Assembly (NCBI GenBank): GCA_000999095.1
Contig: LCFP01000008.1
Coordinates: forward strand, 1 to 50,864
Length of the DNA stretch: 50,864 bases
Reading direction: 5' to 3'
From: Candidatus Gottesmanbacteria bacterium GW2011_GWA2_43_14
Lineage (GTDB): Bacteria; Patescibacteriota; Microgenomatia; 2-02-FULL-39-11
The translations under genes and the position numbers were made by a program. Below the pieces are notes generated by a model that did no database searches, had not been told where the DNA came from, and saw only the letters and a list, made by a program, of their open reading frames with translations. This document shows positions 1 through 37,879 of this stretch, piece after piece (positions within the stretch are counted from its first letter, which is position 1; each line of letters opens with the position of its first letter).

Positions 1-3391
<3,391 letters not shown>

Positions 3392-11776: not shown

Positions 11777-12931
11777 TTAATATATATCAAAAGGATTTTC
11801 GGCTACACCGACATTCCTGATATCAGTCCAGAAATAATTGTTGGGTAGGATTACTGTATTCATATCATATAGGGCAGTGAGGCTGGTTAAATTTTCCCTA
11901 CGGGGTTCAATCAAAGCGCATACCACCGGCTGGCGGACGAATAAATCGGGAGTCAGCTCAATAGGCTCTCCCAGGGGCAGAAGACCATAACGGACAATTT
12001 TGCCTACGGTACCTCGGGTAACAATCTGATTTGCCGGTTGGGGTGACTCGGAGCGCAAAAATGCCTGACCGTCAAAAGTATAGCCGTACTGATTTTTATA
12101 AAGCTCATCCAGGTTGTAAAAATTAGGATGCCTGAAGAAAAGGCCGCCTTCAAGCATCTCATTGGGTTTGTCAGCTTCAATATCGGAAAAAGCACGTCTA
12201 GGGCTGTTGCGATCGTCCAAAGTGGCTTCCATGAACGGCTGAAGGAATTCCTCACCGGTAATTACAGCTTCAAAGTCATTCCGATCCCACTTTGTGATCC
12301 GTCTGGCGAAACGCAGCAGGTGGTCTACCAGGACATCTGATCCGGGGATGTTTCCGGGAAGTAGGCTTTCCTCGTTAATATGTTTCCAATCCACAACGAT
12401 AATCCCGTCTTTCGGCATGCCGCCGATTCCGTGCCGGATATGGGCAATGAGTTTGGGAGCAAGGTTTACAGCAAGACTTGTTAACTGGTTGGGTTGGAGA
12501 AAATAACGGCGCTGGTCAGAATTCAGATCGAAAAATAAATATTTTTCATCAACTACTTTAATATTTCCCTTAAATAGGTTTTCCAGTTCTCCTTCAGGTG
12601 TCATATACCCGTAATAGGATAATTCTTCGCCTATTTTATTTCGCAATGTCTGGACTCTGTCTGCATTTTCTCTAGAATTACCCGTAGAGAGTACGAGATT
12701 CTTTCCGGCAATATAGGCTTTAAATTTAGCGGACGGTGGGAGGTAAAGCCCGCAGGCCTGCTGGTTATCAATCCATTCTATTAATCTTTCTTCCTTATGG
12801 TCGGACAAACCGCTTTCATCTTCAGTGACGACTCTGGAAGGAGGTTGGTCTGGATTTGAGCAGGATGCCATAATTACTGCACCTGCTGCAGTTCCTAAAA
12901 CTTTTAAAGCTTCAAGTCTAGTTATTGCCAT
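11777..12931 (-). CDS. Secreted lipoprotein, function unknown
   Basis: 384 aa. The N-terminus LKVLGTAAGAVIMASCSNPDQPP is signal-peptide-like with a Cys. A TATAAT (plus 12942-12947) lies 10 nt upstream of the ATG. Confidence 0.7.
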   Translation of the reverse strand: MAITRLEALKVLGTAAGAVIMASCSNPDQPPSRVVTEDESGLSDHKEERLIEWIDNQQACGLYLPPSAKFKAYIAGKNLVLSTGNSRENADRVQTLRNKIGEELSYYGYMTPEGELENLFKGNIKVVDEKYLFFDLNSDQRRYFLQPNQLTSLAVNLAPKLIAHIRHGIGGMPKDGIIVVDWKHINEESLLPGNIPGSDVLVDHLLRFARRITKWDRNDFEAVITGEEFLQPFMEATLDDRNSPRRAFSDIEADKPNEMLEGGLFFRHPNFYNLDELYKNQYGYTFDGQAFLRSESPQPANQIVTRGTVGKIVRYGLLPLGEPIELTPDLFVRQPVVCALIEPRRENLTSLTALYDMNTVILPNNYFWTDIRNVGVAENPFDIY

Positions 12932-13002
12932 AATTTGTCATATTATACCGCGCCAAATCAAATTTCCGGATTTTGCCTGTCTGTGGTAAAATGCTATAGG
13001 TT

Positions 13003-13025
13003 ATCCCGCTATGGCGGGATTTTTT
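13003..13025 (+). terminator. Orphan intrinsic-terminator-like hairpin
   Basis: atcccgc (13003-13009), loop tatg, gcgggat (13014-13020), then ttttt (13021-13025). No plus-strand gene ends upstream of it. Confidence 0.4.
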
Positions 13026-13457
13026 CACAAAACCCTTCAAATGCGAGGGGATGTTGTGGTGTTTAAGCTCTTTGACAAATTGCGAGGTAAACAGAATTTC
13101 ACCCTATAGGCTGGGTAGAAGTTCTGTTTAATTGATTACTCGTTTGTGGCATTTGGTGCAGGGGAAAGAGGACAGGATTTCTTCCTGTTTTGTTTTCCCT
13201 GTGCCAATCAGCTGTCGGGAGACACCTGAACGGCTTAAGCCGTAAGCTGACATGCCACGCGAGGCATTTTATTTCGGACGGTCCGAAGTGAAATGGTGGT
13301 ATAAAAGGCATTTTGCCTGATGCAAACGGCTCCTTGATGGGCAAGCGTGAAAATTCACGCCCACTCAAGGGACAAGGGAAGAAAGGAAAAAAAGAACTGC
13401 GAGCCTTGGGCTGTCGCGAGATACCCCATTAAAAGGGTTTGCAGTTCCGGAAGAAAA

Positions 13458-13967
13458 ATGAAGAAAATACTGAGACATTTGAGCCTCTTCTCTTTACTGG
13501 GATTTTTCGTTTTAACCGCCTACCAGTGCGGTGGTAGTCCCAGTAATTCGTTTTCCCCTCCAGATGCCACCTTGGCGGAGGAGCGCGAAAACGCAGAGGC
13601 CACTGAGACGGCCATGGCGCCTTTCCAGCGGGGAAACACTTTTCTGAGCGACGAAAGCAATTCGTTGCTCGGCGAAGTGAAGTTCAACCTGCCGGCAGGG
13701 CCGCTATCCGACCAGTGGGGCCACCTCCATCCACAGCTCCTGGCGAATTTTTCCGGAGAGCAGTACGTACAGCTCTCCAGAAATCTACCAGACGGTACCA
13801 CCGTCTGGGCTATGAGCTTGGATTTCTCCGAAACGGGTTTTTTGACCGTCATCTCTCCGGGAGGAGAGCTTCGAGTAGTGTACTCGAGCGGAGACATTTG
13901 GGAGGGGTCCATTGGGGGGACTGGATTTTACGTCCGTTTTACGGACGGTCAGATCCAGTTTCACTAG
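13458..13967 (+). CDS. Small secreted/lipoprotein-like protein, function unknown
   Basis: The ATG at 13458 gives MKKILRHLSLFSLLGFFVLTAYQCGGSP (signal peptide plus Cys). The ORF-track start at 13347 (GTG) would add 37 aa drawn from a hairpin-rich leader. The region is locally GC-rich. Confidence 0.6.
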   Translation: MKKILRHLSLFSLLGFFVLTAYQCGGSPSNSFSPPDATLAEERENAEATETAMAPFQRGNTFLSDESNSLLGEVKFNLPAGPLSDQWGHLHPQLLANFSGEQYVQLSRNLPDGTTVWAMSLDFSETGFLTVISPGGELRVVYSSGDIWEGSIGGTGFYVRFTDGQIQFH

Positions 13968-14227
13968 CCTCCAGCAATTTTTTCCTCGCAAAAATTGCTT
14001 TCTAAAATTCTCTCCCCGTGACTTATCGGGGAGAATGAGCGGTTTGTTGATTTTTTTGGGATTGAAGACAGGCTTGAGAAGGCCTTGCCTGGCTTCCAGG
14101 ATAAGAGCGCGAAAGCGCCCCAACCGAATTGCCCCCAGGGTAGATTGAGTGCGGCAACGCACTTTCTTCCGCCCCCAAGGCAATTTTTCCCAAATCAAAA
14201 CAACAGACCGCTATTTTTTTGGGAAAA

Positions 14228-14449
14228 TTACAGGAATGAATCAAATTCTTTTTTAGTCAGATTGGCCTGACTGAGGATAGATTTAAATGTACCTCTGGCG
14301 ATTTCCTTATGATCGGGGACAATAACTGTTTGGATCTTTCCTTCAATAATTCCCCTTAATTTGATATGGCTGCCCTTTTGAGATATTATTTCAAATCCAG
14401 CCCTTTTCAGAGTATTCTTTATTACTCTTGCTGAATAAAGCTTGGGCAT
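14228..14449 (-). CDS. hicA: HicA-family mRNA interferase toxin
   Basis: 73 aa. Motifs: MPKLYSARVIKNTLKRAGFEIISQKGSHIKLRG ... VPDHKEIARGTFKSIL. Confidence 0.85.
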   Translation of the reverse strand: MPKLYSARVIKNTLKRAGFEIISQKGSHIKLRGIIEGKIQTVIVPDHKEIARGTFKSILSQANLTKKEFDSFL

Positions 14450-14456
14450 ATTTAAG

Positions 14457-14687
14457 TTAAAGAGGAATGGAATGCAATTCCAGATTTGTCAAAGGATCAG
14501 GGGGAGAAATTTTTTCATCTTCGAAATACAACTCCAGGGCTTCCTCGATATTTTTCAGGGCTTCTTTTTTTGTTTTGCCCTGACTGGCTATTTCTACTTC
14601 AACACATTTTGCAACAAACCACTTGCCTTCCTGCCAAAGAAGAATATTCAGTCCTGATTTAAGTCTTTTTTTAATTTTATTATTCAT
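14457..14687 (-). CDS. hicB: HicB-family antitoxin
   Basis: 76 aa. WQEGKWFVAKCVEVEIASQGKTKKEALKNIEEALELYFED has the HicB/UPF0150 pattern. It lies 7 nt upstream of hicA. Confidence 0.75.
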   Translation of the reverse strand: MNNKIKKRLKSGLNILLWQEGKWFVAKCVEVEIASQGKTKKEALKNIEEALELYFEDEKISPPDPLTNLELHSIPL

Positions 14688-14872
14688 AGTGTAATCATAT
14701 CATATTTAGGGAATATTTTTTGATATAATCCCTTACTTCCGGCCCGTTACTATTATATATAAAGAGTTGTTTGGCAAATGCAGTTCTCCTTGAAAATCTG
14801 AGTTTTCTTTCAGTTCTCTTATATTTCCGGCCGTCTATTGTCACTTTTAAATGGTAATTTTGCTCATTTAAT

Positions 14873-15664
14873 ATGCCTCCTTTGCATGAGAGACGCGAGA
14901 TTGTGCAGTTATATGAGCCGACTCCGGGTGTCAGCTTCAGGGAATTGGCCGGCATCAGACGTGGAAATGTTACCTTTAGCCAGGCCGAAGAGATAACGAA
15001 AAGATATCTGGACTGTTTTGGTCTCGTTTCTCTCAAAAGGCCGACACGGCTTTCATTATTGTTAAAATCCCCAAACCAGACAGTCAGAGCGGTGGCCGCC
15101 TCCTATCTTTCCTATGATGATTTGATGTATACGGGATCAAAAGTTGAGGTAGTTCCTTTGGACGAAAGACTGGAGAGGGTGAAAAAATATTTTCAGGATT
15201 GGCAGGAAATGGCTATAAGTGAGGAAAATCCGGAAGTCCGACTTAATGCTTCTTATGCTTATTTCGGCCTGGTCAGGGCTATGGTGGATCCGGTTCTCGG
15301 AGTGCGGGAAAGCTCCCGTTTTAATATATTGCATAACTTGCCGTTTATCGTCGATGAGGAGGAGGATCGGGAAATAAAGGCATACAAAATCCGGTTTCTG
15401 ACGGAGTTTTTACTGGACAGGCAGGTTAACGGGATTTTTACCGGGGCTGATCTTTCCCCTGTCTGGCAGGGAAGATTTACGGAATTTATGGAAGACCCGC
15501 AAAACCAGCCCCATGTACCGCTTTTGATGGAACAGACTTTTCATGTATTGACTTCGACAGGCTTTAGATTTCATAAGAAGGCGCTCCGCGAGGGCAGAAA
15601 ATTCTTTACGCCGGTACTTGATTCATATTTGGCTTCACTTGATGCCAAGGGTGAAAATTCTTAG
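14873..15664 (+). CDS. Hypothetical protein with HEAT-like repeat motifs
   Basis: 263 aa. NQTVRAVAASYLS and ENPEVRLNASYAYFGL resemble the HEAT/PBS-lyase repeat core (xxVRxxAA). Confidence 0.5.
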   Translation: MPPLHERREIVQLYEPTPGVSFRELAGIRRGNVTFSQAEEITKRYLDCFGLVSLKRPTRLSLLLKSPNQTVRAVAASYLSYDDLMYTGSKVEVVPLDERLERVKKYFQDWQEMAISEENPEVRLNASYAYFGLVRAMVDPVLGVRESSRFNILHNLPFIVDEEEDREIKAYKIRFLTEFLLDRQVNGIFTGADLSPVWQGRFTEFMEDPQNQPHVPLLMEQTFHVLTSTGFRFHKKALREGRKFFTPVLDSYLASLDAKGENS

Positions 15665-16033: not shown

Positions 16034-16594
16034 TCAGGATTTATTCTTCTTCATGTCCTCTTCGACCAGTTTCCGCAGATAAACAGCTTTGGGCAGTTTT
16101 TTGTTCCTGGTGATTTTGTCCAGATAGGCGGCGATTTCCCGGGTGATGTAAAAAGTAAAGCGCATATCAGCCGGGCCTTTGACGAAATTGACAAAATCCT
16201 CGATTATGCCGGGTAAATTATCACTGTTATAACGCTCAGTCATCAGTTTCTCGTCTTTGTGGTATGCCAGGAGCGACGGCGGATGCCCTTCGCTGTAAAG
16301 GACCAGGACGGGTTTGCCCAAATGGAGGGCCAGGGAAATTTCATAGCCCACGGATATTGAGGGAAAGGAAACTTCGGCTATCATAAAGGAGCTTTGGCTG
16401 ATCCATTTTTCCAGCTTTTTATGGAAAAAGAGACGGTCTTCCCTTTTGCTTAAATTCACTTCGGATTCCTCTGTTTTGATGATGTGGTCGGCGATCACCT
16501 CGAAACCGCGCTGTTTGATCTCCCCGATTATCCCCAGATATTTTTGCAGGTACTGGTTTTTGCCTGCAATCGAGGCGGTGAAATATGCCTTCAT
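16034..16594 (-). CDS. DNPH1/nucleoside 2-deoxyribosyltransferase-like domain fused to a C-terminal ribbon-helix-helix (paralogue 1, catalytic motif intact)
   Basis: 186 aa. MKAYFTASIAGK, IADHI, MIAEVSFPSISVGYEISLA and KPVLVLY parallel DNPH1 YFCGSIRGG / AEVTQPSLGVGYELGRA. The tail RFTFYITREIAAYLDKITRNKKLPKAVYLRKLVEEDM has a strand-helix-helix pattern. Confidence 0.7.
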   Translation of the reverse strand: MKAYFTASIAGKNQYLQKYLGIIGEIKQRGFEVIADHIIKTEESEVNLSKREDRLFFHKKLEKWISQSSFMIAEVSFPSISVGYEISLALHLGKPVLVLYSEGHPPSLLAYHKDEKLMTERYNSDNLPGIIEDFVNFVKGPADMRFTFYITREIAAYLDKITRNKKLPKAVYLRKLVEEDMKKNKS

Positions 16595-16649
16595 GATGAC
16601 CTGTATTATACCCGAAATAGTATGGACATGCTGTGGAGGCCTGTCTGAA

Positions 16650-18284
16650 TCAATGAAAATTGCCGTGCATACGATTATATAACGTCTCGAATTCCTGAAA
16701 GGTTATGACCTTGGACACTGAAAAATCTACAGGCTTTTCGCTGGAAGATTGATTGTTACCGTTTTTAGCCAGTGAGTCACGTACCTCCTGTCTGGCTTTT
16801 TCCAGTTGCCAGCGGGTTACCCAATTATGCATGGCTTCCAGGTCTGCGGATGTAACGGTTGTGAAGTCCCCCCAATAAATGTTTCCCTTTTCACCGGTAG
16901 GGGAATTGTCTGCCGAAAGCGACATGCCCCCCCAGTTAATGGTTAAAGCGAAAATGTGCCCCTTATTTGGCAGTTCTTCAGTTTCCATGTCTGCGGATGT
17001 CTTTATCAAAAGGCCCCGTTTGACGGATCCCTGTACTATATATTCTTTTGGGACAAGCCAGGATTTTTTTTGCCAATCAGGCCGGTTGTAGGTACCATTA
17101 TTTTCCAAGACGGATATCAGGTAATAAAGGATAGGCCTGCCGTTTTCTGCTGTTTTAATTATTTCCCCGTCATTTGCGGCTTGAAATTTAGCCATTTGCC
17201 GCATGGTTTCCGTCAGAGATCGATGAAATAAATTCAATAGATTTTGGTTGGCCGCGGGATTTTCCAAAATGACGGTTTCCATTTTTTCAAGAAGGTCTTT
17301 GATTCCTTTTGAATTATTGCCGTGTACCTGGAGGAGCATATTTTCACCGGTTTTCTTAAGATCAAGGCTTCTGTGGCGGGCAATATCTTTGGGTGTAAAT
17401 TTTTGGTCCAATACCCCCTGGAAAAAAGCGATTAAACTTGTTAATTGGAAAAATTCACGGCTTTCCTGCGTAAAAGCAGGAATGGTATCAAGCAGTTCGC
17501 GTTTTTGCCGGCAAAGTATGTAATATTCCCTGCCTTCACTTGTTTTCAGCCGGCGGTTAATATCCAGCAAAGAGCCAAGTGTGGTCGTCAACAGGGATTT
17601 CTCCTGTTGGAGTATGTCTATTTGGTTGTCTATTCCTGCTATTTCAGCTATTCCGGAACTGGATATAGCGGACACTTCAGCGGCAACTTCGTCCAGTATA
17701 TCAGGACTATAATTTGTTGATCCTAAGCTGATAGGGGAGGGTCCGTCCGGTTGCATTTGGTTACCGTTCGATGCCGAAAGCAGTTTTTCCAGTAAAACTG
17801 CTTCCGGATCAGGATTGTCATCCTTTTGTTCTTCGGATTGTATCTGCCGGCTGTGTCTTTTATATACAGTAAAGACAGAATCTTTTCTTGCCGCTTCAAT
17901 TTGAACTACTTCAGCCTCCAGATCTTTTATGCTTTTCCGGTTCAGAAAGATTTGATTGTGCGCCTCGATAACTCTTATCTCATCGGCAATCCGCAAAAAC
18001 TCGACCAGCGGGCTGGAAATAAGACTTGATTCCGGGTCGTCAAGCATGGAGTCTTCATGGTCAATAAGGCCGTAGCGGAGCAGCAGATTGCCTTCCTGCG
18101 GAGCGGCCGCCGCTCTGCCGTTGATAGCTGCACCTACCGTATCCAGACTGTGGTGCAATTTGTGAGTCCGGGAGAAATTTACTCCGACGATACCGGCAAA
18201 CATCCGGGCTGTCCTGTCAAGTAAAGGATCGCCGGAGGTTATTTCGGCTGAAGATGTCAGGGCTTTTTCCAATTGTTGAACCAT
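16650..18284 (-). CDS. Hypothetical 544-aa protein (orphan)
   Basis: Long uninterrupted ORF between two DNPH1-RHH paralogues. Predicted helical/coiled segments are present, but no motif was recognised. Confidence 0.7.
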   Translation of the reverse strand: MVQQLEKALTSSAEITSGDPLLDRTARMFAGIVGVNFSRTHKLHHSLDTVGAAINGRAAAAPQEGNLLLRYGLIDHEDSMLDDPESSLISSPLVEFLRIADEIRVIEAHNQIFLNRKSIKDLEAEVVQIEAARKDSVFTVYKRHSRQIQSEEQKDDNPDPEAVLLEKLLSASNGNQMQPDGPSPISLGSTNYSPDILDEVAAEVSAISSSGIAEIAGIDNQIDILQQEKSLLTTTLGSLLDINRRLKTSEGREYYILCRQKRELLDTIPAFTQESREFFQLTSLIAFFQGVLDQKFTPKDIARHRSLDLKKTGENMLLQVHGNNSKGIKDLLEKMETVILENPAANQNLLNLFHRSLTETMRQMAKFQAANDGEIIKTAENGRPILYYLISVLENNGTYNRPDWQKKSWLVPKEYIVQGSVKRGLLIKTSADMETEELPNKGHIFALTINWGGMSLSADNSPTGEKGNIYWGDFTTVTSADLEAMHNWVTRWQLEKARQEVRDSLAKNGNNQSSSEKPVDFSVSKVITFQEFETLYNRMHGNFH

Positions 18285-18377
18285 GCTTCATTTTAGGTTG
18301 TTATGGTAATCCTGCCCAATGCATCACCGGTATGCATTTATTATGAAGAAATCATAAATCGGGGGAATCCGGGGAGT

Positions 18378-18911
18378 TTATCCGGTTTTCATTTCTTTTT
18401 CAATCAGTTGCCGGAGGTAGACTGATTTGGACTGATTTTTCCTGCCCGCCGCCCTTTCCAGGAAAGCTGCCAGACGGTTAGGAATAAAGAAATTAAAGCA
18501 TTTGCTGCCGGTTTTATCGTTACCGGCTATAAACTTTCTGATGATTTCAGCCAGATTATGCTCATTATATTTCCGGCAGGAAATTAAACCGTTCGAGTAT
18601 TTATTGGCTATTGTCGGAGCCTGTCCGTGAGAGTAGAGGATCAGGACCGGTTTGTTACCGGAGGAAGCCAGAGCAATCTGTATGCCGGCATTGACCGAAG
18701 GCAGGCTTGTTTCAGCTATCATGACATCAGCTTGAAGGATATCCTGTTCTGCAGAAAGAAAGCCGGTCGCAGGGTTTTTTGAGTTAGAATTGTATTCGGA
18801 AAAGTTATTCTGTCCCGTAATAGTAATCTTTTCCTTCCTTAATATCTTCAATATCCGCAAATAATTATCCCTGTATTTTTTATTGTCCGACGCCAGAAAA
18901 TATGCTTTCAT
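18378..18911 (-). CDS. DNPH1-like domain fused to a C-terminal ribbon-helix-helix (paralogue 2, catalytic motif degenerate)
   Basis: 177 aa. MKAYFLASDNKK, VMIAETSLPSVNAGIQIALA (Glu replaced by Gln, Tyr by Ile) and KPVLILY. The tail is CFNFFIPNRLAAFLERAAGRKNQSKSVYLRQLIEKEM. Confidence 0.65.
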   Translation of the reverse strand: MKAYFLASDNKKYRDNYLRILKILRKEKITITGQNNFSEYNSNSKNPATGFLSAEQDILQADVMIAETSLPSVNAGIQIALASSGNKPVLILYSHGQAPTIANKYSNGLISCRKYNEHNLAEIIRKFIAGNDKTGSKCFNFFIPNRLAAFLERAAGRKNQSKSVYLRQLIEKEMKTG

Positions 18912-19239
18912 AGTCGTTTATTTTAAAAATAAAATTTCCAGGCAGGTGAGAAGGGCCAGTGAAGTAAAAATGAAAAAAAGCCAGCTCAGTTTCTCCGCCA
19001 GGTCCATTTTTTGTCCGGCAGTCTGCGGGGCGACTTTGATAGCATCGTGAGTCATGAATTGACAAATATCGGGTGCCTTGTTAAATTACTTTTTACGGCA
19101 CGATAAAAGCAGCACCCCTGTTTTTAAACGTGATCGTCAAACCGTCCCGGCGGAAACGTCAGGACGGTTTGCTTAATTCGGGAATAATTTTAGGCTATGT
19201 GGTTAAAAGCACCAATACATATTGGTTACGTATATGCGG

Positions 19240-19797
19240 TTAGCTGCGGTTTTTTATATCCTGTTCTATCAGCTTGCGTAAATAGACCGACTTGGGTTGT
19301 TTTTCCCTTCTGGAGGTCTTTTCCAGAAAGGAGGCTATTTCCGAAGTGATAAAAAAAGTAAAACGCGTGTCATTGGTGCCTTTGACATAATTGATAAAAT
19401 CATCGATTGTCCCGGCCAGAGTCTCCCGGCTGTATTTCTCGCAAATAAGCTTTTCATCCTTATGGTGGGCCAAAAGAGACGGGGGATTGCCTGAGGAGAA
19501 GAGGATCAGGATCGGCTTGAGAAAATGCTGGGCCAGGGATATTTCATAACCTACCGATATCGACGGGAAGGTGGTTTCGGCCACAATAAAATCAGACGTG
19601 GAGATCCATTTCTCCAGTTGTTTATGGAATTTCAGACGGTCTTCCTTTTTTTCCAATTTAACTTCCGATTCGGTTGATTTGATGATGTGGTCGGCTACGA
19701 CGTCGCAATTTTTGTCTTTGAGCAGACTGATGATTTTCAGGTAATTTCCCAGATGGTGTTTCTTGCCGACGATTGAAGCGGTGAAGTAGACTTTCAT
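19240..19797 (-). CDS. DNPH1-like domain fused to a C-terminal ribbon-helix-helix (paralogue 3, catalytic motif intact)
   Basis: 185 aa. MKVYFTASIVGK, VADHI, IVAETTFPSISVGYEISLA and KPILILF. The tail is RFTFFITSEIASFLEKTSRREKQPKSVYLRKLIEQDI. Confidence 0.7.
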   Translation of the reverse strand: MKVYFTASIVGKKHHLGNYLKIISLLKDKNCDVVADHIIKSTESEVKLEKKEDRLKFHKQLEKWISTSDFIVAETTFPSISVGYEISLAQHFLKPILILFSSGNPPSLLAHHKDEKLICEKYSRETLAGTIDDFINYVKGTNDTRFTFFITSEIASFLEKTSRREKQPKSVYLRKLIEQDIKNRS

Positions 19798-19969
19798 AAC
19801 AGCCGATAGTATTAAATCAATTTTACTCCCAATTCGGAATTGTTACAAATAGATAAGTATCTATAAAATAGCCAGCTGCCCGGTTTCCGATATGCACCCT
19901 TTACGTATTGAGTAAATTGACAATCCTATAGTAATATACTATGATTTTAGGAAAATTAAAAATAATCAT

Positions 19970-20920
19970 ATGACAAATCGAAATGAAATAAGCAGAAGAA
20001 CATTTATACAATTGGCAGGGTTAGCATTAGTTTCAACTATTCCTTGGTTAACTTCATGTTCACCCAGCCAGCCGCCAAGCGGAGATGAACAACCGGGGGC
20101 AGCTTTAACAGGAGCAGCTGCACCTCCGGATGCAACTACAAACGTACAGCAACCTGCCGCTGAGGCCCCGCAGGCTTCCCCGGACGTTTCCCTCAATGCT
20201 CCCATCGACCTGACGGCCATAACTTCGGAATATCCTGTGGAAGGATTGGAAGTCAGAAAATTGAAGCTTAACGATTTCTTTACAGTCACTTTTCTGGTGA
20301 CAGAACACTATCCGGAGGATGCCCAAAATAAAGACAAGATGCATTACATCAAAGAAGCAATTGAAGGAAGCAGTTGTGTGGTTCCCGAATACTGGACTCC
20401 GGCGATTGAAGAAATGAGAGACAGCGCATGGGTTAAACTCATGACTAAGCCCGGCGACAGGATTATTTCTTTCTTTTCCCGGATCTATGATATCAGCTTA
20501 AGATTCGAAAAACCGGTATGGGTGCTTGATCCGGCCAACAGGAAGTCCTTTATGGATGTTGCCGGACAGCATGCTTTTGAGAGATTTTCCGATGATGAAG
20601 CCAGGGAAAAAGAGAGTATTTACCGCAACACTTTAAACGCAGCCTTTTTAGTGGCTTTGGCAAACAAATATGAAGCTGAAAATTCCAAGCAAAACTGCGC
20701 TTATGTCTTGCCCAAAGCCCACGCCGACCAGATAATGGATTTAATCTTCAGTCATAACCCTCCTGAGATTTCACTTAAAGCAGCCGATGATTACTATTCG
20801 ATTTCCCCGACAAACAGGACGGAAAATATGAATAGCAGAATAGACCAGTATACAGCCCGACAATATATTCCTTCAGGAGACGGTTTTATTGAAAGAGACA
20901 CGATAAGCCTGCTTCTTTAG
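19970..20920 (+). CDS. Tat-signal lipoprotein, function unknown
   Basis: 316 aa. The N-terminus ISRRTFIQLAGLALVSTIPWLTSCS combines a twin-arginine motif, a hydrophobic stretch and a Cys. Confidence 0.7.
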   Translation: MTNRNEISRRTFIQLAGLALVSTIPWLTSCSPSQPPSGDEQPGAALTGAAAPPDATTNVQQPAAEAPQASPDVSLNAPIDLTAITSEYPVEGLEVRKLKLNDFFTVTFLVTEHYPEDAQNKDKMHYIKEAIEGSSCVVPEYWTPAIEEMRDSAWVKLMTKPGDRIISFFSRIYDISLRFEKPVWVLDPANRKSFMDVAGQHAFERFSDDEAREKESIYRNTLNAAFLVALANKYEAENSKQNCAYVLPKAHADQIMDLIFSHNPPEISLKAADDYYSISPTNRTENMNSRIDQYTARQYIPSGDGFIERDTISLLL

Positions 20921-20982
20921 TATCCTATATTAAAAGTTCTTATGTTTGTTTAAACTACCTGAATATGATAGGATAGCCGGTT

Positions 20983-22245
20983 ATGAATGAAGTATTAATA
21001 CCGGCTCAACCGCTCAGGTTGGACTATAATGACGCCTTCTTGTATGTAGAATCATGGAAAGGGCAGGACCTTCCATCCATTATCAGTAGTCAACTTCAGA
21101 AGGTTAATATTTTCCGGGAAGTGACTGACCAAAATGAAAGGGACAAGCTGATTAAAGATTCTGCCCACAATTTGGCAATGGCCTATAGAAGGCAGGGGAT
21201 AACCACAGCCGGGGAATTGGCGGAAAAATTGGGTCTTGAGACACCGGAATACAGGCAGATGACAGTCATCGACGAAGCTATTTTGTCAGGAGGGATTGAG
21301 TTTTTCAGAATTGATGAAGAATCGGAATCAGCCGTAAATCTTGATGAAAGGGAAGCCGGAAGTCTTTTGGATAGCATGGTCAGGGTTAAACTGCAAGCTT
21401 TAAAAAAAGGCGATCCTTACCTTTACAGCGTACAGACATTAAGGATGGCCATGAGCGGTTTTAATGCCAGAGTCAGGCTGGCTGCCTGGAAGATGTTTAA
21501 ACCGGAAACACTGGCAGTCCAAGAGGGAGATGAGGCAGGTACTTTTTGGAAGGGGGCAGACAGGAAAATCAATGAACGGCTGGCAGCATTGGCAGGTGCT
21601 ATGGTTTATTTGTCCAACCATGATGAGGACAGGCAAATCAGGCTGACGGTTTTTGATAAACTGGCTGATCTGGCAAAGAATTATTATGATCCGGCAAATG
21701 AGATAAAATACAGACAGCTAAGACCTTTGGATTATCTCAAGTCAGCTTTGAGCGGGGAAGAGGATCAGGAGGTATTGGGAGAGAAACTGTATAAACTGGC
21801 TGAACTTTATGCTGATAAAGACTTTTCGGACAGGCTGGCGGCTGTGGGATTATATCAGTCAAATTCGGAAGCAGGCAAGCAATTAGTTTCAAGATTCCAA
21901 AAAAAGGCCAGGGATTTTATCAACCGGGGAAGTGATGCTTATGAAGCATTTAAACTGATCTCAAATGTGTATTTTAGAGCAGGTGATAATACTTTTTATT
22001 CAGGTTTAAAAGAATACCTTCAGGAAGAAGATTTCATAAAAGCTGCGCAAAAGCTGGCTGAGAAGGAAAAGGCAGAAGGCATAAATGCAGAGCAAAAAAA
22101 GACTTTGCGGACAATTATCGACAATTTCAAATCAAGGCATAAAAAAGACAGCCTGATACCAGGCATAGAAGAAATGTTCATAAAGGCAAAACTTATTGAG
22201 AGAAAAAAAGCTCCACGGACTGACGAATCGTTTCCAAAAACATAA
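20983..22245 (+). CDS. Hypothetical alpha-helical protein with HEAT-like motifs
   Basis: 420 aa. NARVRLAAWKMF, DRQIRLTVFDKLADL and SDRLAAVGLYQS are repeat-core-like. Confidence 0.6.
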   Translation: MNEVLIPAQPLRLDYNDAFLYVESWKGQDLPSIISSQLQKVNIFREVTDQNERDKLIKDSAHNLAMAYRRQGITTAGELAEKLGLETPEYRQMTVIDEAILSGGIEFFRIDEESESAVNLDEREAGSLLDSMVRVKLQALKKGDPYLYSVQTLRMAMSGFNARVRLAAWKMFKPETLAVQEGDEAGTFWKGADRKINERLAALAGAMVYLSNHDEDRQIRLTVFDKLADLAKNYYDPANEIKYRQLRPLDYLKSALSGEEDQEVLGEKLYKLAELYADKDFSDRLAAVGLYQSNSEAGKQLVSRFQKKARDFINRGSDAYEAFKLISNVYFRAGDNTFYSGLKEYLQEEDFIKAAQKLAEKEKAEGINAEQKKTLRTIIDNFKSRHKKDSLIPGIEEMFIKAKLIERKKAPRTDESFPKT

Positions 22246-22343
22246 AGACGTCAGGAGTAATCCATAAATTAAAACAATGCCAACATACGCGGACTTGGGT
22301 AGGTTTTGCTTTTTAAACTTCTTTTTGTTATAAATCCTATCCA

Positions 22344-23741
22344 ATGGCTCTAAAATTTGAAACAGCAGATAGTCTTAACGAATATTTGAGTGACCCCGAT
22401 AGCAGTAATTATATAATCAAACCGATTTTATGTTTGGTGCTTGCCAAAGATGGGAAAAGACCGCTGGAGGTTAGGTCAGCAGCGTTGCAGCATATAAATT
22501 TGGAGGATATTGGGATGACGACATCCTTCGGCCGGAGCATTACATGGTCAAATATACAAGGAGAGTTAAAAGCCGGAATTTTTAAGCCTTATGCAGATTC
22601 TTTGATCAATTTAGCCAATGAAGATCGGGAGCCCGCCATAAGAGGTCAGGCTGCCCGAAAACTCAGCCAGCTGTCAAGAAAACTGCATCAGGAAGATACA
22701 CAATTTGGCATTCCCGAAAGTCTGCATCTTTTGCAAAATTTGTCCTGGATTGTTGATTTGGAAAACAACAGGGAAGATCCCGATAAAGACATAAACGTAC
22801 TGGCGGAAAAAGCCCAGGCACTGATGGAATATTGCCTTGATCCTGACGTCCGGGAAAATCATTACCTGGGAGAAGAGAGGCTTGATGCAGCCTGGCAGCA
22901 ACATGCACGGCTTCTGGTGGTTTTTCCTGCTGAGGCGCATTACGATGAGGCGGAAGATTTCGAAAAAGCTATTGCGCAAGCTGAACCGTATTTGCGGCCG
23001 GTGTTGAGTATGGCAGCGGCCTTTGACACTTTCAACTCAACCGATATCAGACTAAGCGCGTTAGGGCAATTGCATTTATCCGAGATAGGCAAGGTTGAGG
23101 AAGGCAGGGTGTGTGAAACAATTCCCAACTGGCTGAAACAGGGGATGACCCTGCCTTATTTTGATGGGTTGGCCGGGTTGGCTGAGGAAGACGAAAAAGC
23201 GGAAATAAGGGGAAAAGCGGCCATGAAATTTTTCTATTTTGCCCGCGGGCTGGGAGAAGGGGAATCAGGTCACGGACTTATCCTTGAGTTGGGTTTATTG
23301 GACAGGTTGCAGTCAATGTTCAATAAGGAAGCTGAGAGGAGAAATCCTCCGGTTGAGAGTATGGGTAAAATTGCCCAGGCACTGGCGGGTTATGCGTATT
23401 TGTACGCTGAGGCTAAGGGAAATTTTTATGAAGATGAAAAAATGTTTGGAATATACGGAAATCTCGTTAAAAGGATGACACAGGAACCGAAATTGATCCC
23501 GGCTGGCCTCAAATTTATCTCCAACGTACTGGTTTCAGGCGAGGAGGACGAGTTATTTGCCGGTTTAAGGGAAGACAGCACTTTTTCCCTGGGAACTATG
23601 TTGGAGATGATTGAGTTATATGAAAACCTTGGGTTCAACGGTGAACCCCTGAGATATCAATGCAGCAGGTATTTTGCGGAAAAATTAAGTAAAATTCAAG
23701 CTATCGCTGAAGAGGCCGGTGACATAATTTTCCACTGGTGA
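22344..23741 (+). CDS. Hypothetical alpha-helical protein with HEAT-like motifs
   Basis: 465 aa with repeat-core-like motifs LEVRSAALQHI, EPAIRGQAARKLSQL, TDIRLSALGQL and AEIRGKAAMKFF. TGT-TATAAA (22326-22334) lies 9 nt before the ATG. Confidence 0.6.
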   Translation: MALKFETADSLNEYLSDPDSSNYIIKPILCLVLAKDGKRPLEVRSAALQHINLEDIGMTTSFGRSITWSNIQGELKAGIFKPYADSLINLANEDREPAIRGQAARKLSQLSRKLHQEDTQFGIPESLHLLQNLSWIVDLENNREDPDKDINVLAEKAQALMEYCLDPDVRENHYLGEERLDAAWQQHARLLVVFPAEAHYDEAEDFEKAIAQAEPYLRPVLSMAAAFDTFNSTDIRLSALGQLHLSEIGKVEEGRVCETIPNWLKQGMTLPYFDGLAGLAEEDEKAEIRGKAAMKFFYFARGLGEGESGHGLILELGLLDRLQSMFNKEAERRNPPVESMGKIAQALAGYAYLYAEAKGNFYEDEKMFGIYGNLVKRMTQEPKLIPAGLKFISNVLVSGEEDELFAGLREDSTFSLGTMLEMIELYENLGFNGEPLRYQCSRYFAEKLSKIQAIAEEAGDIIFHW

Positions 23742-23747
23742 ATAAAG

Positions 23748-24401
23748 TCAATCCGGGCAGCTGCCGGATTTGAGGTAGCCTGAGGCTTGGGCTTCTTCTT
23801 CAGTGCAAAACCAGCGGTCCCCGAAAGATTCATCGACAATCACCTGGGCATAATTGATGCAACCTGGCAGATGATAAATTTTATTGCCCGCCCGGATATT
23901 GCCTTTGATTACGCAAACACTGACGGGCGTTGTCTTCCGGCAGAGAGTAGAATATATACCCAGTTTCTGACTTTTAGCTATATTTTGCGCTTCTTTCAAA
24001 CGTTCTGATTCCCGGCTTTTACCGGCGTGGTACAAAACCAGTCCCTGCCGGACGAGCTCGGCATTGACGAATTGCCCGGAAGCGTAAACATTTGAAAGGA
24101 GCCTGCCGTAGTCGTCTTCGACCGTATCCTTCAGACTGACCCTTTTGCGGAATATCAAAGATTCCAGATACATTTTCGCTTCTAGTCCCATGCATCTGTC
24201 AATATCCGGGGCATCCACAGACAGCAGCCTGACTTTGCGCCCGTCGGAAAGGGTGAAACTGTCCCCGTCATAGATTTGGACTACCCTGTTTCTTTCAAGT
24301 TGTAGGGACACCTGATAGAAATTGAAAAGGAGTGACAGGAGGAACAGGCCGGCAAGAAGATAAAGAAGGAAAGTCCTCCGGCCTTTTATTTTCCCTGCCA
24401 T
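23748..24401 (-). CDS. Membrane-anchored staphylococcal-nuclease (SNase/thermonuclease) homologue with a Cys-containing C-terminal module
   Basis: 217 aa. The N-terminal TM is FLLYLLAGLFLLSLLF. SNase motifs are DGDSFTLSDGRKVRLLSVDAPD, DDYGRLLSNVY and VNAELVRQGL. The C-terminus is IKGNIRAGNKIYHLPGC...RWFCTEEEAQASGY. Confidence 0.8.
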   Translation of the reverse strand: MAGKIKGRRTFLLYLLAGLFLLSLLFNFYQVSLQLERNRVVQIYDGDSFTLSDGRKVRLLSVDAPDIDRCMGLEAKMYLESLIFRKRVSLKDTVEDDYGRLLSNVYASGQFVNAELVRQGLVLYHAGKSRESERLKEAQNIAKSQKLGIYSTLCRKTTPVSVCVIKGNIRAGNKIYHLPGCINYAQVIVDESFGDRWFCTEEEAQASGYLKSGSCPD

Positions 24402-24482: not shown

Positions 24483-24752
24483 ATGACTATGGATTATATT
24501 TCAACCACAGATTTAAGATCAAAAACTGCCAGACTTGTTGATACTCTGAGAAAAGGAGGGGAAGTTGTTTTAGTCCACCGGTCAAAGGTAATCGGCCGGA
24601 TCAAACCCACAGATAAGGAAAGCATAACTTTTGATTTTGCAAGCTTCCAAAAACTTGCAGGCCGGCTTAAGTTACCGACATTAACTTATAAGCAAATAAA
24701 ATCCAGATACTCCGCGTATCTGAAGAAAAAGTATGGCAAAAATCTTTCTTGA
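24483..24752 (+). CDS. Phd/YefM-type antitoxin
   Basis: 89 aa. ISTTDLRSKTARLVDTLRKGGEVVLVHRSKVIGRIKP is a typical Phd/YefM N-terminal domain. It overlaps the PIN gene by 20 nt. The in-frame ATG at 24489 is an alternative start. Confidence 0.7.
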   Translation: MTMDYISTTDLRSKTARLVDTLRKGGEVVLVHRSKVIGRIKPTDKESITFDFASFQKLAGRLKLPTLTYKQIKSRYSAYLKKKYGKNLS

Positions 24753-25098
24753 TGCCAACTATTTCATCAGAGTAATCACAAAGAGAAGTGATAATGATTT
24801 TTCCCCATTAACATCTAACCTACTGTTTATTTCTCCTTTGTCGGTTCATATTTTTTATTATGTTTATAAAATCAGGGTACCGGACGGCAAAATCCTGAAA
24901 TTAATGGATTTTTTTAATATTATTTCACTGACTGACGAAATAATTACCCGCTCAGGAGTGGGGCCGACAACTGATTTAGAGGATAATGTACAGCTCCATT
25001 CCGCCTCCGCTGCCGGTTGCTCCTATTTTCTGACACAAGACAGGGGGCTTTTGAGAATGAAGTTTTTCGGTAAAACCGCAGTCAAAGCTGAATTTTGA
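24733..25098 (+). CDS. vapC: PIN-domain toxin (VapC-like)
   Basis: 121 aa. MAKIFLDANYFI supplies the first acidic residue, and TDLEDNVQL...YFLTQD supplies the distal acidic residues. Confidence 0.7.
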   Translation: MAKIFLDANYFIRVITKRSDNDFSPLTSNLLFISPLSVHIFYYVYKIRVPDGKILKLMDFFNIISLTDEIITRSGVGPTTDLEDNVQLHSASAAGCSYFLTQDRGLLRMKFFGKTAVKAEF

Positions 25099-36745: not shown

Positions 36746-37879
36746 CTATTCATTGACGGCAATTGTCTTGTTGAATTCTCCCGCAAATTGACCCCTAGGG
36801 TATTGATTGGCCTGTCTGAATAATTCCAAAGCTTGAGTTTTAAATTCAGCCACCCGGGTAATTGCCGGAGGTTTTCCGCAACTTTCAGTTAATTTCTGAC
36901 TGCGTAACACTTTTCTGCCTCCCCAGCCGGCAGGCTGTTCCAGGATGTATTTTACTTCGACAACTCCGCGTTTATTTCTGCCCTGTTCCCTTATCATCTG
37001 GCTGCAGCTGTGGCACGGTTCAAATAATGAATAGACGACAGGTTCAAAGGTTATTTTCTTCATCTCTATTTGTTTATATCCCATGCCGTTCATTGCCGTC
37101 AGAGCCATATGTTCAGCATGCCCGTCAAATCCTTCCCCCTGCGCCCTGTTTTTATTCCTGGAAATTATCACCGGTCCTAATCTGCCGGTAGGTTCTATTA
37201 AAGCAGCATAGGGGTAGCGTCCTTCATCCAAACTTTTTTGAGCGGCATACAGTATTAATTTCCAATACTCGTTTTCCTGGTCATGTGCCGGATTTGCTGC
37301 TTCATCCGGCGGAACCGGAACCCGCAGATCACCCTTTTCGGAAATAACCGTCCTTTTCAGATACTCCGGACCTTTTCTGCGGTCCAGGGCAATACCCGCC
37401 TGGACGTACATAGGCTCCCCACTATTCATATTCCATCTGGCGATGATAAAAGGTGCGTTGGAATCCGCAGGATATGGACGGCAAACAAGACGGTTGAAAT
37501 ATACTCTGCGTGAATTTTGAATTACTAATTTCCCGTCAATCTCCTGAAAAACTCTCGGGGTCGGCATGTCAAAGACACTCTGAGTTTCCAGTCTTAAACT
37601 TGCGAGTATATTATGGTAAAGATCTAATATGCCCAAATTCCTGTCTTTCAGAAATAGGGTATTTCCGGGACTTGCTTCTGAAAATAAGTTTTTAGGAAGA
37701 TCAGTGATACTTGAAGAAACTGATTGAAATAATCCGTTGTACATTTTTAAAACTGCCTCCAGTTGCTTTGGGTCTAAAAAAGGATATTGTTCCATAAACT
37801 GATCAGTTGCGGCGGTTAAAGCGTTATCCGCAGTTGTAGTTATTGGCAGTCCGCTTCTTGCTTCAAAAGTTTTTGTCAT
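36746..37879 (-). CDS. Zinc-dependent nucleotide/nucleic-acid deaminase (CDA fold, HAE...PCxxC) with an unassigned N-terminal domain of about 200 aa
   Basis: 377 aa. GFDGHAEHMALTAM and LFEPCHSCSQMI lie about 30 aa apart. The start lies 2 nt after the stop of the upstream wHTH gene. Confidence 0.7.
   Translation of the reverse strand: MTKTFEARSGLPITTTADNALTAATDQFMEQYPFLDPKQLEAVLKMYNGLFQSVSSSITDLPKNLFSEASPGNTLFLKDRNLGILDLYHNILASLRLETQSVFDMPTPRVFQEIDGKLVIQNSRRVYFNRLVCRPYPADSNAPFIIARWNMNSGEPMYVQAGIALDRRKGPEYLKRTVISEKGDLRVPVPPDEAANPAHDQENEYWKLILYAAQKSLDEGRYPYAALIEPTGRLGPVIISRNKNRAQGEGFDGHAEHMALTAMNGMGYKQIEMKKITFEPVVYSLFEPCHSCSQMIREQGRNKRGVVEVKYILEQPAGWGGRKVLRSQKLTESCGKPPAITRVAEFKTQALELFRQANQYPRGQFAGEFNKTIAVNE

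Follow-up and report, generated by a model that had tools for sequence, protein, structure and literature searches.

What does a protein that resembles a nucleotide-hydrolyzing enzyme do with a DNA-binding tail, and why are three genes for such proteins found around an orphan in a single genome? The question is raised by a 50,864-nt stretch of DNA, hereafter the window, from Candidatus Gottesmanbacteria bacterium GW2011_GWA2_43_14 (contig LCFP01000008.1 of assembly GCA_000999095.1, positions 1-50,864). Four intact open reading frames (ORFs) reported in an earlier note on this DNA were recovered, all on the minus strand: copy A (16034..16594, 186 aa), an orphan (16650..18284, 544 aa), copy B (18378..18911, 177 aa) and copy C (19240..19797, 185 aa). 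The note described A, B and C as paralogues that join a domain like DNPH1, a member of the nucleoside deoxyribosyltransferase (NDT) fold, to a C-terminal ribbon-helix-helix (RHH), and it read them, together with the orphan, as a defense module. We come to a different reading, which we hold with somewhat better than even confidence: A and C are N-glycosidases of (deoxy)nucleoside monophosphates ((d)NMPs), possibly transferases, with a DNA-binding tail, and the local cluster is a lineage-specific accumulation of paralogues. The enzyme part of this reading rests on retained catalytic residues and the DNA-binding part on the hallmarks of the RHH, while a regulatory coupling between the two is what we infer.

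The three copies are related to different degrees. A and C are 62-63% identical, compared to 34-37% for B against either of them, and a hidden Markov model (HMM) of the family matched A at E 1.7e-93, B at E 1.9e-61 and C at E 1.7e-95, confirming that they are paralogues on one strand. Because the whole arrangement recurs at 99.96-100% identity in five or more groundwater assemblies made independently, it is not an assembly artifact.

The N-terminal domain was placed by both sequence and structure. When A was compared with all PDB sequences by phmmer, DNPH1/Rcl proteins were the only matches (rat Rcl, E 3.8e-12; human, about 2e-8). A profile of 40 family members matched Rcl at E 2.6e-15 over residues 2-134 and nothing outside DNPH1/Rcl in the PDB at E≤1. 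Neither search, with A or with the profile, gave a sequence match to MilB or to classical nucleoside deoxyribosyltransferases. An AlphaFold2 (AF2) model of the fusion (predicted local distance difference test score, pLDDT, 85.9; predicted template modeling score, pTM, 0.70) has an alpha/beta, Rossmann-like fold of the NDT type, and its top 50 Foldseek matches in the PDB are all DNPH1/Rcl, at E of about 1e-8 and target-normalized TM scores of 0.73-0.83. The N-domains of A and C belong to the DNPH1/Rcl branch of the NDT superfamily, as the motif alignment of the earlier note had indicated. The Pfam check proposed in that note was less clear, since PF05014 did match A and C (E about 1e-5, 25-26 bits) but stayed under its gathering score of 28.8, and B had no match in the Pfam scan.

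In copy A, this domain covers residues 1-139 (16178-16594, minus strand) and contains Tyr4, Ser8, Ser79 and Glu85. Tyr4 corresponds to rat Tyr13 in strand beta-1 and is invariant in the family, B included. The phosphate-binding serines, Ser8 (rat Ser17) and Ser79 (rat Ser87), are invariant too. Glu85, the counterpart of the nucleophile Glu93 in rat, lies in a VGYE motif and is present in A, C and at least 90% of the 40 family members, with Gln in its place in B. Ser107 is near-invariant and falls, in the HMM alignment, two columns off rat Ser117, which contacts the phosphate from the partner subunit.

The tail was examined in the same way. In the AF2 model, the DNPH1-like fold ends at about residue 139 and is followed by a low-confidence linker (142-145), an extended segment (146-151) and two helices (152-165 and 169-184), modeled at a pLDDT near 90; in copy A, the tail is residues 145-184 (16043-16162, minus strand). 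The Pfam family RHH_3 matched 18 of 20 family tails, with a best E of 5.2e-7, and the tail of A taken singly, at 21.2 bits, fell just short of the 21.6-bit cut-off. A profile of the tails was also in register with a CopG-type sequence (P 1.2e-3). NCBIfam returned only weak, sub-threshold RelB-like matches to the tails. The ribbon reads R-F-T-F-(F/Y)-I-T; of its residues, Arg145 and Thr147 point outward and are the same in at least 90% of members. Helix B is preceded by a P-K-S turn with an invariant Lys169 and with Pro168 and Ser170 conserved at 90% or more, and Arg174 is invariant across the family. In RHH proteins, contacts to bases and to phosphates are expected at these positions. The tails are RHH domains of the CopG/Arc/MetJ superfamily, and the strand-helix-helix model, together with RHH_3, bears out the earlier assignment of this domain to all three copies.

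Another possible explanation is that the tail is an extra oligomerization element and not a DNA-binding RHH. The single-sequence Pfam scores just under the gathering cut-off would fit this, as would the lack of any match in PDB sequence searches with the tail, used singly or as a profile. However, RHH_3 was found in 18 of the 20 family tails, the register with the CopG-type sequence was kept, and the outward Arg and Thr, along with Lys169, Ser170 and Arg174, are invariant or at least 90% conserved, which fits nucleic-acid contact better than a purely hydrophobic interface. We consider this the least probable of the alternatives weighed here.

The fusion is not peculiar to the window. A search with A returned at least 618 clusters at E≤1e-3, and the 120 that were listed are all 183-220 aa long, with 97-100% query coverage and 56-80% identity (100% for A itself). 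When 185,579 representative genomes were scanned with a pattern, 114 loci were confirmed, 80 of which were fetched and examined. The members are mostly from Gottesman-, Roizman-, Woese- and Daviesbacteria, with others elsewhere in the Patescibacteria, and identity across these candidate phyla stays in a uniform band of 50-64%. Within ±6 kb, 79 of the 80 loci have one copy and only a sister species has two; in a few genomes, another contig carries a second copy. Linked copies, three in the source species and two in the one sister, were seen nowhere else among the loci examined. Clustering of the neighbors of 78 loci found no universal partner, the commonest cluster being present in 19 of the 78, and the neighbors that could be annotated include peptidase M50, YtxH, an ArsR-type helix-turn-helix (HTH) protein, ribosomal protein L28, fmt and a TrwB-like ATPase. 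Compared to their sister orthologues, A (80% identity) has a ratio of nonsynonymous to synonymous substitution rates (dN/dS) of 0.075 and C (83%) one of 0.057, both approximate because dS is saturated. Purifying selection on A and C is strong. The fusion forms a widespread and conserved family of the Microgenomates, mostly single-copy, in contexts that are varied and largely housekeeping. The earlier note had linked its proposal to conservation of the fusion and its neighborhood beyond this genome; the fusion is indeed conserved, in 114 representative genomes, but the neighborhood is not. The DNPH1-RHH fusion is undescribed as far as literature searches show; they found no paper that connects DNPH1 or NDT to an RHH domain or to the Patescibacteria.

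Many of the family loci are in metagenome-assembled genomes titled 'uncultured Gammaproteobacteria' (L007, L010, L011 and others), and a few are in genomes titled Limisphaerales, Weeksellaceae or Actinobacteria. The Gammaproteobacteria titles were taken as a labeling artifact because the large contigs among them are about 1 Mb long and their proteins group with copies from the candidate phyla radiation (CPR). The oddly titled loci are probably mislabeled or misbinned Patescibacteria contigs.

This distribution bears directly on the proposal of the earlier note, in which the three fusions and the orphan make up a self-repressed, nucleotide-depleting module of the defense or toxin-antitoxin (TA) kind, in which B would be a regulatory subunit that is catalytically dead. 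Several observations would suit it. RHH domains are typical of TA autorepressors, and some retrons have NDT-like effectors. The region around the locus is variable and contains HicAB (14228-14687), a PIN gene and an SNase gene, and AbiEii was found near family members in 7 of 78 loci, although not in a fixed position. NDT/DNPH1-like domains also occur in immune effectors, such as the CMP-hydrolase domain of the type VIII Thoeris protein ThsI (bioRxiv 10.64898/2025.12.03.692087). Nevertheless, A, B, C and the orphan had no PADLOC match at E≤1, a PHROG scan gave no match, and no family copies were found in a scan of viral contigs. No TIR gene, reverse transcriptase or msDNA partner is among the annotated ORFs, retron noncoding RNA not having been searched for specifically. 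The family has no conserved partner, is single-copy at all but one of the loci examined and shows the even identity across phyla and the strong purifying selection described above. Homologues of the orphan beside fusions, for which the note had suggested a neighborhood search, came down to one frameshifted copy in the sister, and there was no conserved defense island. The bracketing of an orphan by the copies, which the note had seen as a system, occurs only in the source species and that sister, and B is unique to the source species. These data do not support a self-regulated defense or toxin module, which we regard as highly unlikely, and no new defense system is added by the locus.

Next, the upstream regions were considered, since the note had placed a TATAAT or TAAAAT box 8-11 nt before each ATG and had suggested that two palindromes upstream of C are RHH operators. 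The boxes were found for A (TATAAT at 16605..16610, minus strand, 10 nt upstream of the ATG in a leaderless-type arrangement) and for B (TAAAAT at 18920..18925, minus strand, 8 nt upstream), but not for C. There, a promoter-like sequence of TTGTAA, 17 nt and TAAAAT (19820..19848, minus strand) ends 22 nt before the ATG, and only a weak TAATAC is found at 11 nt. In a comparison of 83 family upstream regions with 552 control regions, TATAAT was enriched in the family (36/83 vs 108/552), and so was GTATAATA (16/83 vs 19/552). TATAAT or TGnTATAAT boxes are often 6-12 nt from the family ATGs (L005-L084 and the window), suggesting that the genes have their own promoters and leaderless transcripts. 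Between the C stop codon and B, an inverted repeat (19138..19171, minus strand) with 15-nt arms, 87% complementary, and a 4-nt loop may be a transcript-end hairpin for C; no T-run comes after it.

The coordinates of both palindromes were confirmed. CAATTC-N-GAATTG (19830..19842) lies in the spacer of the C promoter, and ATAGATA-NN-TATCTAT (19849..19864) abuts the upstream side of the C -35 element, both of which are plausible positions for a repressor. However, perfect palindromes with arms of at least 7 nt are no more frequent in the family upstream regions (16/83, 19%) than in the controls (111/552, 20%), and a search of the window found both palindromes at chance level, with no enrichment. 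Footprinting with three close orthologues of C showed that the 13-mer at 19830..19842 is not conserved in the sister; at the position aligned with the 16-nt palindrome, two relatives have a different TATC/GATA palindrome, so that only one of the two is partly conserved. As proposed operators, the two palindromes cannot be told from background, and the operator hypothesis was set aside, with the second kept as a weak operator candidate. The target of the RHH could be elsewhere, or it could be something other than a promoter.

A catalytically competent-looking enzyme domain and a DNA-binding domain are, by sequence and model, present in one polypeptide. If our preferred reading is correct, the fusion would dimerize through both domains and would cleave a (d)NMP to a base and (deoxy)ribose 5-phosphate, or move the sugar phosphate to another base as the phage enzyme DmtZ does. 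CPR bacteria (Patescibacteria) lack most nucleotide biosynthesis and have scavenged nucleic acids as a supply, and, in cells so dependent on salvage, the reaction would aid nucleotide scavenging or sanitize the pool. The RHH would couple the enzyme to DNA, most likely making it a ligand-sensitive transcriptional regulator, a trigger enzyme like PutA.

Several findings weigh against this reading. The column of rat Asp69, the third residue of the catalytic triad, is occupied by Leu61, with a near-invariant Glu62 adjoining it, and in place of Arg19 of the rat phosphate loop there is Ala or Val, followed two positions later by a near-invariant Lys12. Because of the Leu and the lost Arg, substrate and chemistry may differ from those of DNPH1. 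Enrichment of k-mers upstream of the 83 family genes found -10 boxes only and no shared operator-like motif. Autoregulation is thus unsupported, since the DNA-reading residues are conserved across the family and a shared operator should have been detectable. Also, the locus is within the variable stretch with its HicAB, PIN and SNase genes, and the estimates of selection carry the saturation of dS noted above.

The substituted active-site positions could also mean that the N-domain is mainly a nucleotide sensor, in which case the protein would be a nucleotide-responsive RHH repressor like NikR or MetJ, with slow or vestigial catalysis. The third triad position is neither Asp nor Asn and the loop Arg is gone, B is evidence that the fold can be kept after the nucleophile is lost, and the architecture parallels that of regulators with a ligand domain and an RHH. 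Yet Tyr4 is invariant, and Glu85 in its GYE context, Ser8 and Ser79 are conserved in at least 90% of members; the loss of catalytic residues is confined to the fast-evolving B, and no target operator was found upstream of family genes. We regard this explanation as unlikely.

The missing operator bears on a further possibility, that the RHH has no transcriptional role and tethers the glycosidase to DNA-linked substrates, such as 5'-phosphorylated termini at nicks or ends, or modified bases. This would agree with the conserved DNA-reading and phosphate-contacting residues of the RHH in a family with no common upstream motif, and a DNA 5' end would fit the retained 5'-phosphate-binding serines too. 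On the other hand, the RHH domains known so far bind operators in a sequence-specific manner, mononucleotides are held by DNPH1 in a closed active-site pocket formed across the dimer, and no repair genes are among the commonest annotated neighbor clusters. This makes tethering improbable as well.

Copy B differs from A and C in ways that were largely foreseen. In a gap-free stretch of the alignment, GYE is changed to GIQ and the catalytic nucleophile is lost, the phosphate loop (ASDNKK) is two residues shorter, and the DH motif is missing. The alignment thereby confirms the substitutions from which the earlier note had predicted an inactive paralogue. The statement that B keeps its RHH holds in part: the helix-B signature KSVYLRQLIEKEM is retained, but in the ribbon Arg is changed to Cys and Thr to Asn. 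Just three proteins match B, at 33-39% identity and none of them close, and B is a long branch in a neighbor-joining (NJ) tree. A conserved subfamily of dead paralogues was considered and rejected since B has no close relatives. At least five assemblies have the B ORF, intact and without differences. It appears to be under coding constraint still because, diverged as it is, it stays open and keeps its hydrophobic core and helix B, and a decaying pseudogene is unlikely. Judged by these sequence features, B is probably a lineage-specific pseudoenzyme paralogue, which may act as a regulator only or as a heterodimerizing partner. A more elaborate possibility would have B heterodimerize with A or C to retune the activity or operator choice of a DNA-tethered N-glycosidase/transferase, one that acts on DNA termini or modified nucleotides or is a dNMP-sensing trigger enzyme of a salvage regulon; we give this combination a small chance.

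The orphan between B and A was described as having no recognizable domain, and our searches agree. Nothing credible was found for it in Pfam, NCBIfam, PADLOC or PHROGs, and a word-index search returned only itself. An exhaustive phmmer search of 1.84 billion representatives found the orphan and three fragments of 94-102 aa, which are the copy of the sister species split over three reading frames. That copy (L001 6455-7971, equal to L005 4455-5971) has two frameshifts, which are real because the same sequence is found in five independent assemblies; both flanking genes stay intact in the sister. The proportion of nonsynonymous differences between the orphan and the sister fragments is lower than that of synonymous ones (pN 0.37, pS 0.70), which suggests that the orphan has served as a coding gene. 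Its divergence is much faster than that of the neighboring genes, with 42-56% identity to the sister compared to 80-83% for A and C. The AF2 model suggested in the earlier note, mostly long alpha helices, had a pLDDT of 41.6 and was, therefore, not usable for a fold search. The orphan is restricted to the source species and the one sister, and it is absent from all other genomes. It is best read as a young, dispensable, lineage-specific gene with no demonstrable functional tie to A, B or C.

How, then, did the copies come together? The window and the sister genome are syntenic, with RPE, transketolase, transaldolase and DUF2270 genes, a variable stretch, the DNPH1-RHH genes and a gene for a 316-aa lipoprotein-like protein. 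The sister locus has two copies, orthologues of A and C, and the frameshifted orphan, but no B. A third Gottesmanbacteria genome has, at the syntenic site, a single C-type copy without the orphan or A, with the 316-aa homologue upstream of it and DUF2270 and transaldolase downstream. In the NJ tree, which has no support values, C falls among the other Gottesmanbacteria copies, and A and its orthologue are elsewhere; the identity of A to C (63%) is no higher than to copies from other phyla. For these reasons, C was taken as the resident Gottesmanbacteria-type gene. A recent tandem duplication as the source of A and C was rejected because their 63% identity equals the distance to other phyla and they hold separate positions in that same unsupported tree. 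As far as sequence comparison goes, A would be an old paralogue or a transfer already in place when the two species separated. Between A and C, the orphan either originated or was acquired, B is specific to the source species, and the local triplet is an accumulation of paralogues in this lineage.

Two minor observations concern the same stretch. In one assembly of the same population (L087), about 64 nt of the spacer between C and B (window 19003-19066) are replaced by about 44 nt (L087 564-607), with the remainder of the locus 99.97-100% identical. A twin-arginine/lipoprotein-like N-terminus was seen in the 316-aa protein, whose gene is kept beside C-type copies in three genomes.

Among known systems, DNPH1/Rcl (rat 2KLH and 4FYH, human 8OS9 and others) is the only PDB family matched by sequence and fills the Foldseek top 50. 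It shares with the fusion the alpha/beta NDT fold, the beta-1 Tyr (YF...S), a PS..VGYE motif with the Glu nucleophile and two phosphate-binding serines. In contrast to DNPH1/Rcl, to which it is about 20-30% identical, the fusion has Leu for Asp69 with Glu at +1, has lost the loop Arg19 with a near-invariant Lys two positions on, adds a 45-aa C-terminal RHH and is confined to CPR bacteria. The phage protein DmtZ is a DNPH1-like dAMP N-glycosidase that also transfers deoxyribose-5-phosphate to another base; the third residue of its triad is a variant, Asn, and it is sometimes fused to Dut (PMC12884076). By description only, it is like the fusion in being a DNPH1-like enzyme of the prokaryote world with a variant third triad residue and occasional fusion, but it is phage-encoded, tied to Z-genome synthesis and without an RHH. 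DmtZ shows that transfer, besides hydrolysis, can occur in the DNPH1 branch.

Enzyme or ligand domains are combined with an RHH (or HTH) in one chain in PutA, other trigger enzymes and the NikR/MetJ regulators. The likely logic in these proteins, metabolite status coupled to DNA binding, may by analogy apply to the fusion. Unlike the C-terminal RHH of the fusion, those of PutA and NikR are N-terminal; in addition, the enzyme families are unrelated, and no operator was found for the fusion. HicB-type antitoxins have an alpha/beta domain followed by a C-terminal RHH, an order seen in the fusion as well, and a HicAB pair is 1.3 kb away. However, the fusion differs from HicB and other type II TA autorepressors in that it has no adjacent toxin, forms a conserved single-copy family and has an intact enzyme as its N-domain. 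The defense effectors, type VIII Thoeris ThsI and the NDT-like retron proteins, share a related nucleotide N-glycosidase fold with the fusion, which in contrast has no PADLOC match and is not in a conserved defense island.

A DNPH1-type enzyme with an RHH would be an unstudied node in the nucleotide economy of CPR bacteria. It would also be a rare bacterial case of a nucleotide-catabolic enzyme joined to a transcription-factor domain. The A/B/C set provides a natural comparison of active with dead copies, and the enzyme is small and soluble-looking, which makes expression easy.

The remaining observations concern other genes of the window. The HicA toxin (73 aa, Pfam E 4e-15) adjoins a 76-aa HicB-like DUF7387 protein (14228-14687, minus strand); the two form a type II TA pair in a stretch that is missing from the sister genome. 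Near the cluster are an SNase-family nuclease (23748-24401, minus strand; 217 aa, E 4e-16), which could feed nucleotide scavenging, and a weak PIN-domain protein (24733-25098, plus strand). A 377-aa protein (36746-37879, minus strand) has a sub-threshold match to the zinc-binding region of cytidine/dCMP deaminases (E 3e-5) and is possibly another nucleotide-salvage gene. ORFs of 384, 206, 263, 316, 420 and 465 aa in 11777-15664 and 19970-23741 had no Pfam match, and a 110-aa ORF in these stretches had only a sub-threshold match to DUF3698. Judged by eye, HEAT-like repeats are apparently common to the 263-, 420- and 465-aa proteins. Rfam and tRNA scans of the window gave no matches. Finally, an 846-aa protein (851-3391, minus strand) has a MerR/HTH_17 domain at its N-terminus and also contains long stretches of collagen triple-helix repeats (Pfam Collagen, E 4e-83), which is an odd pairing.

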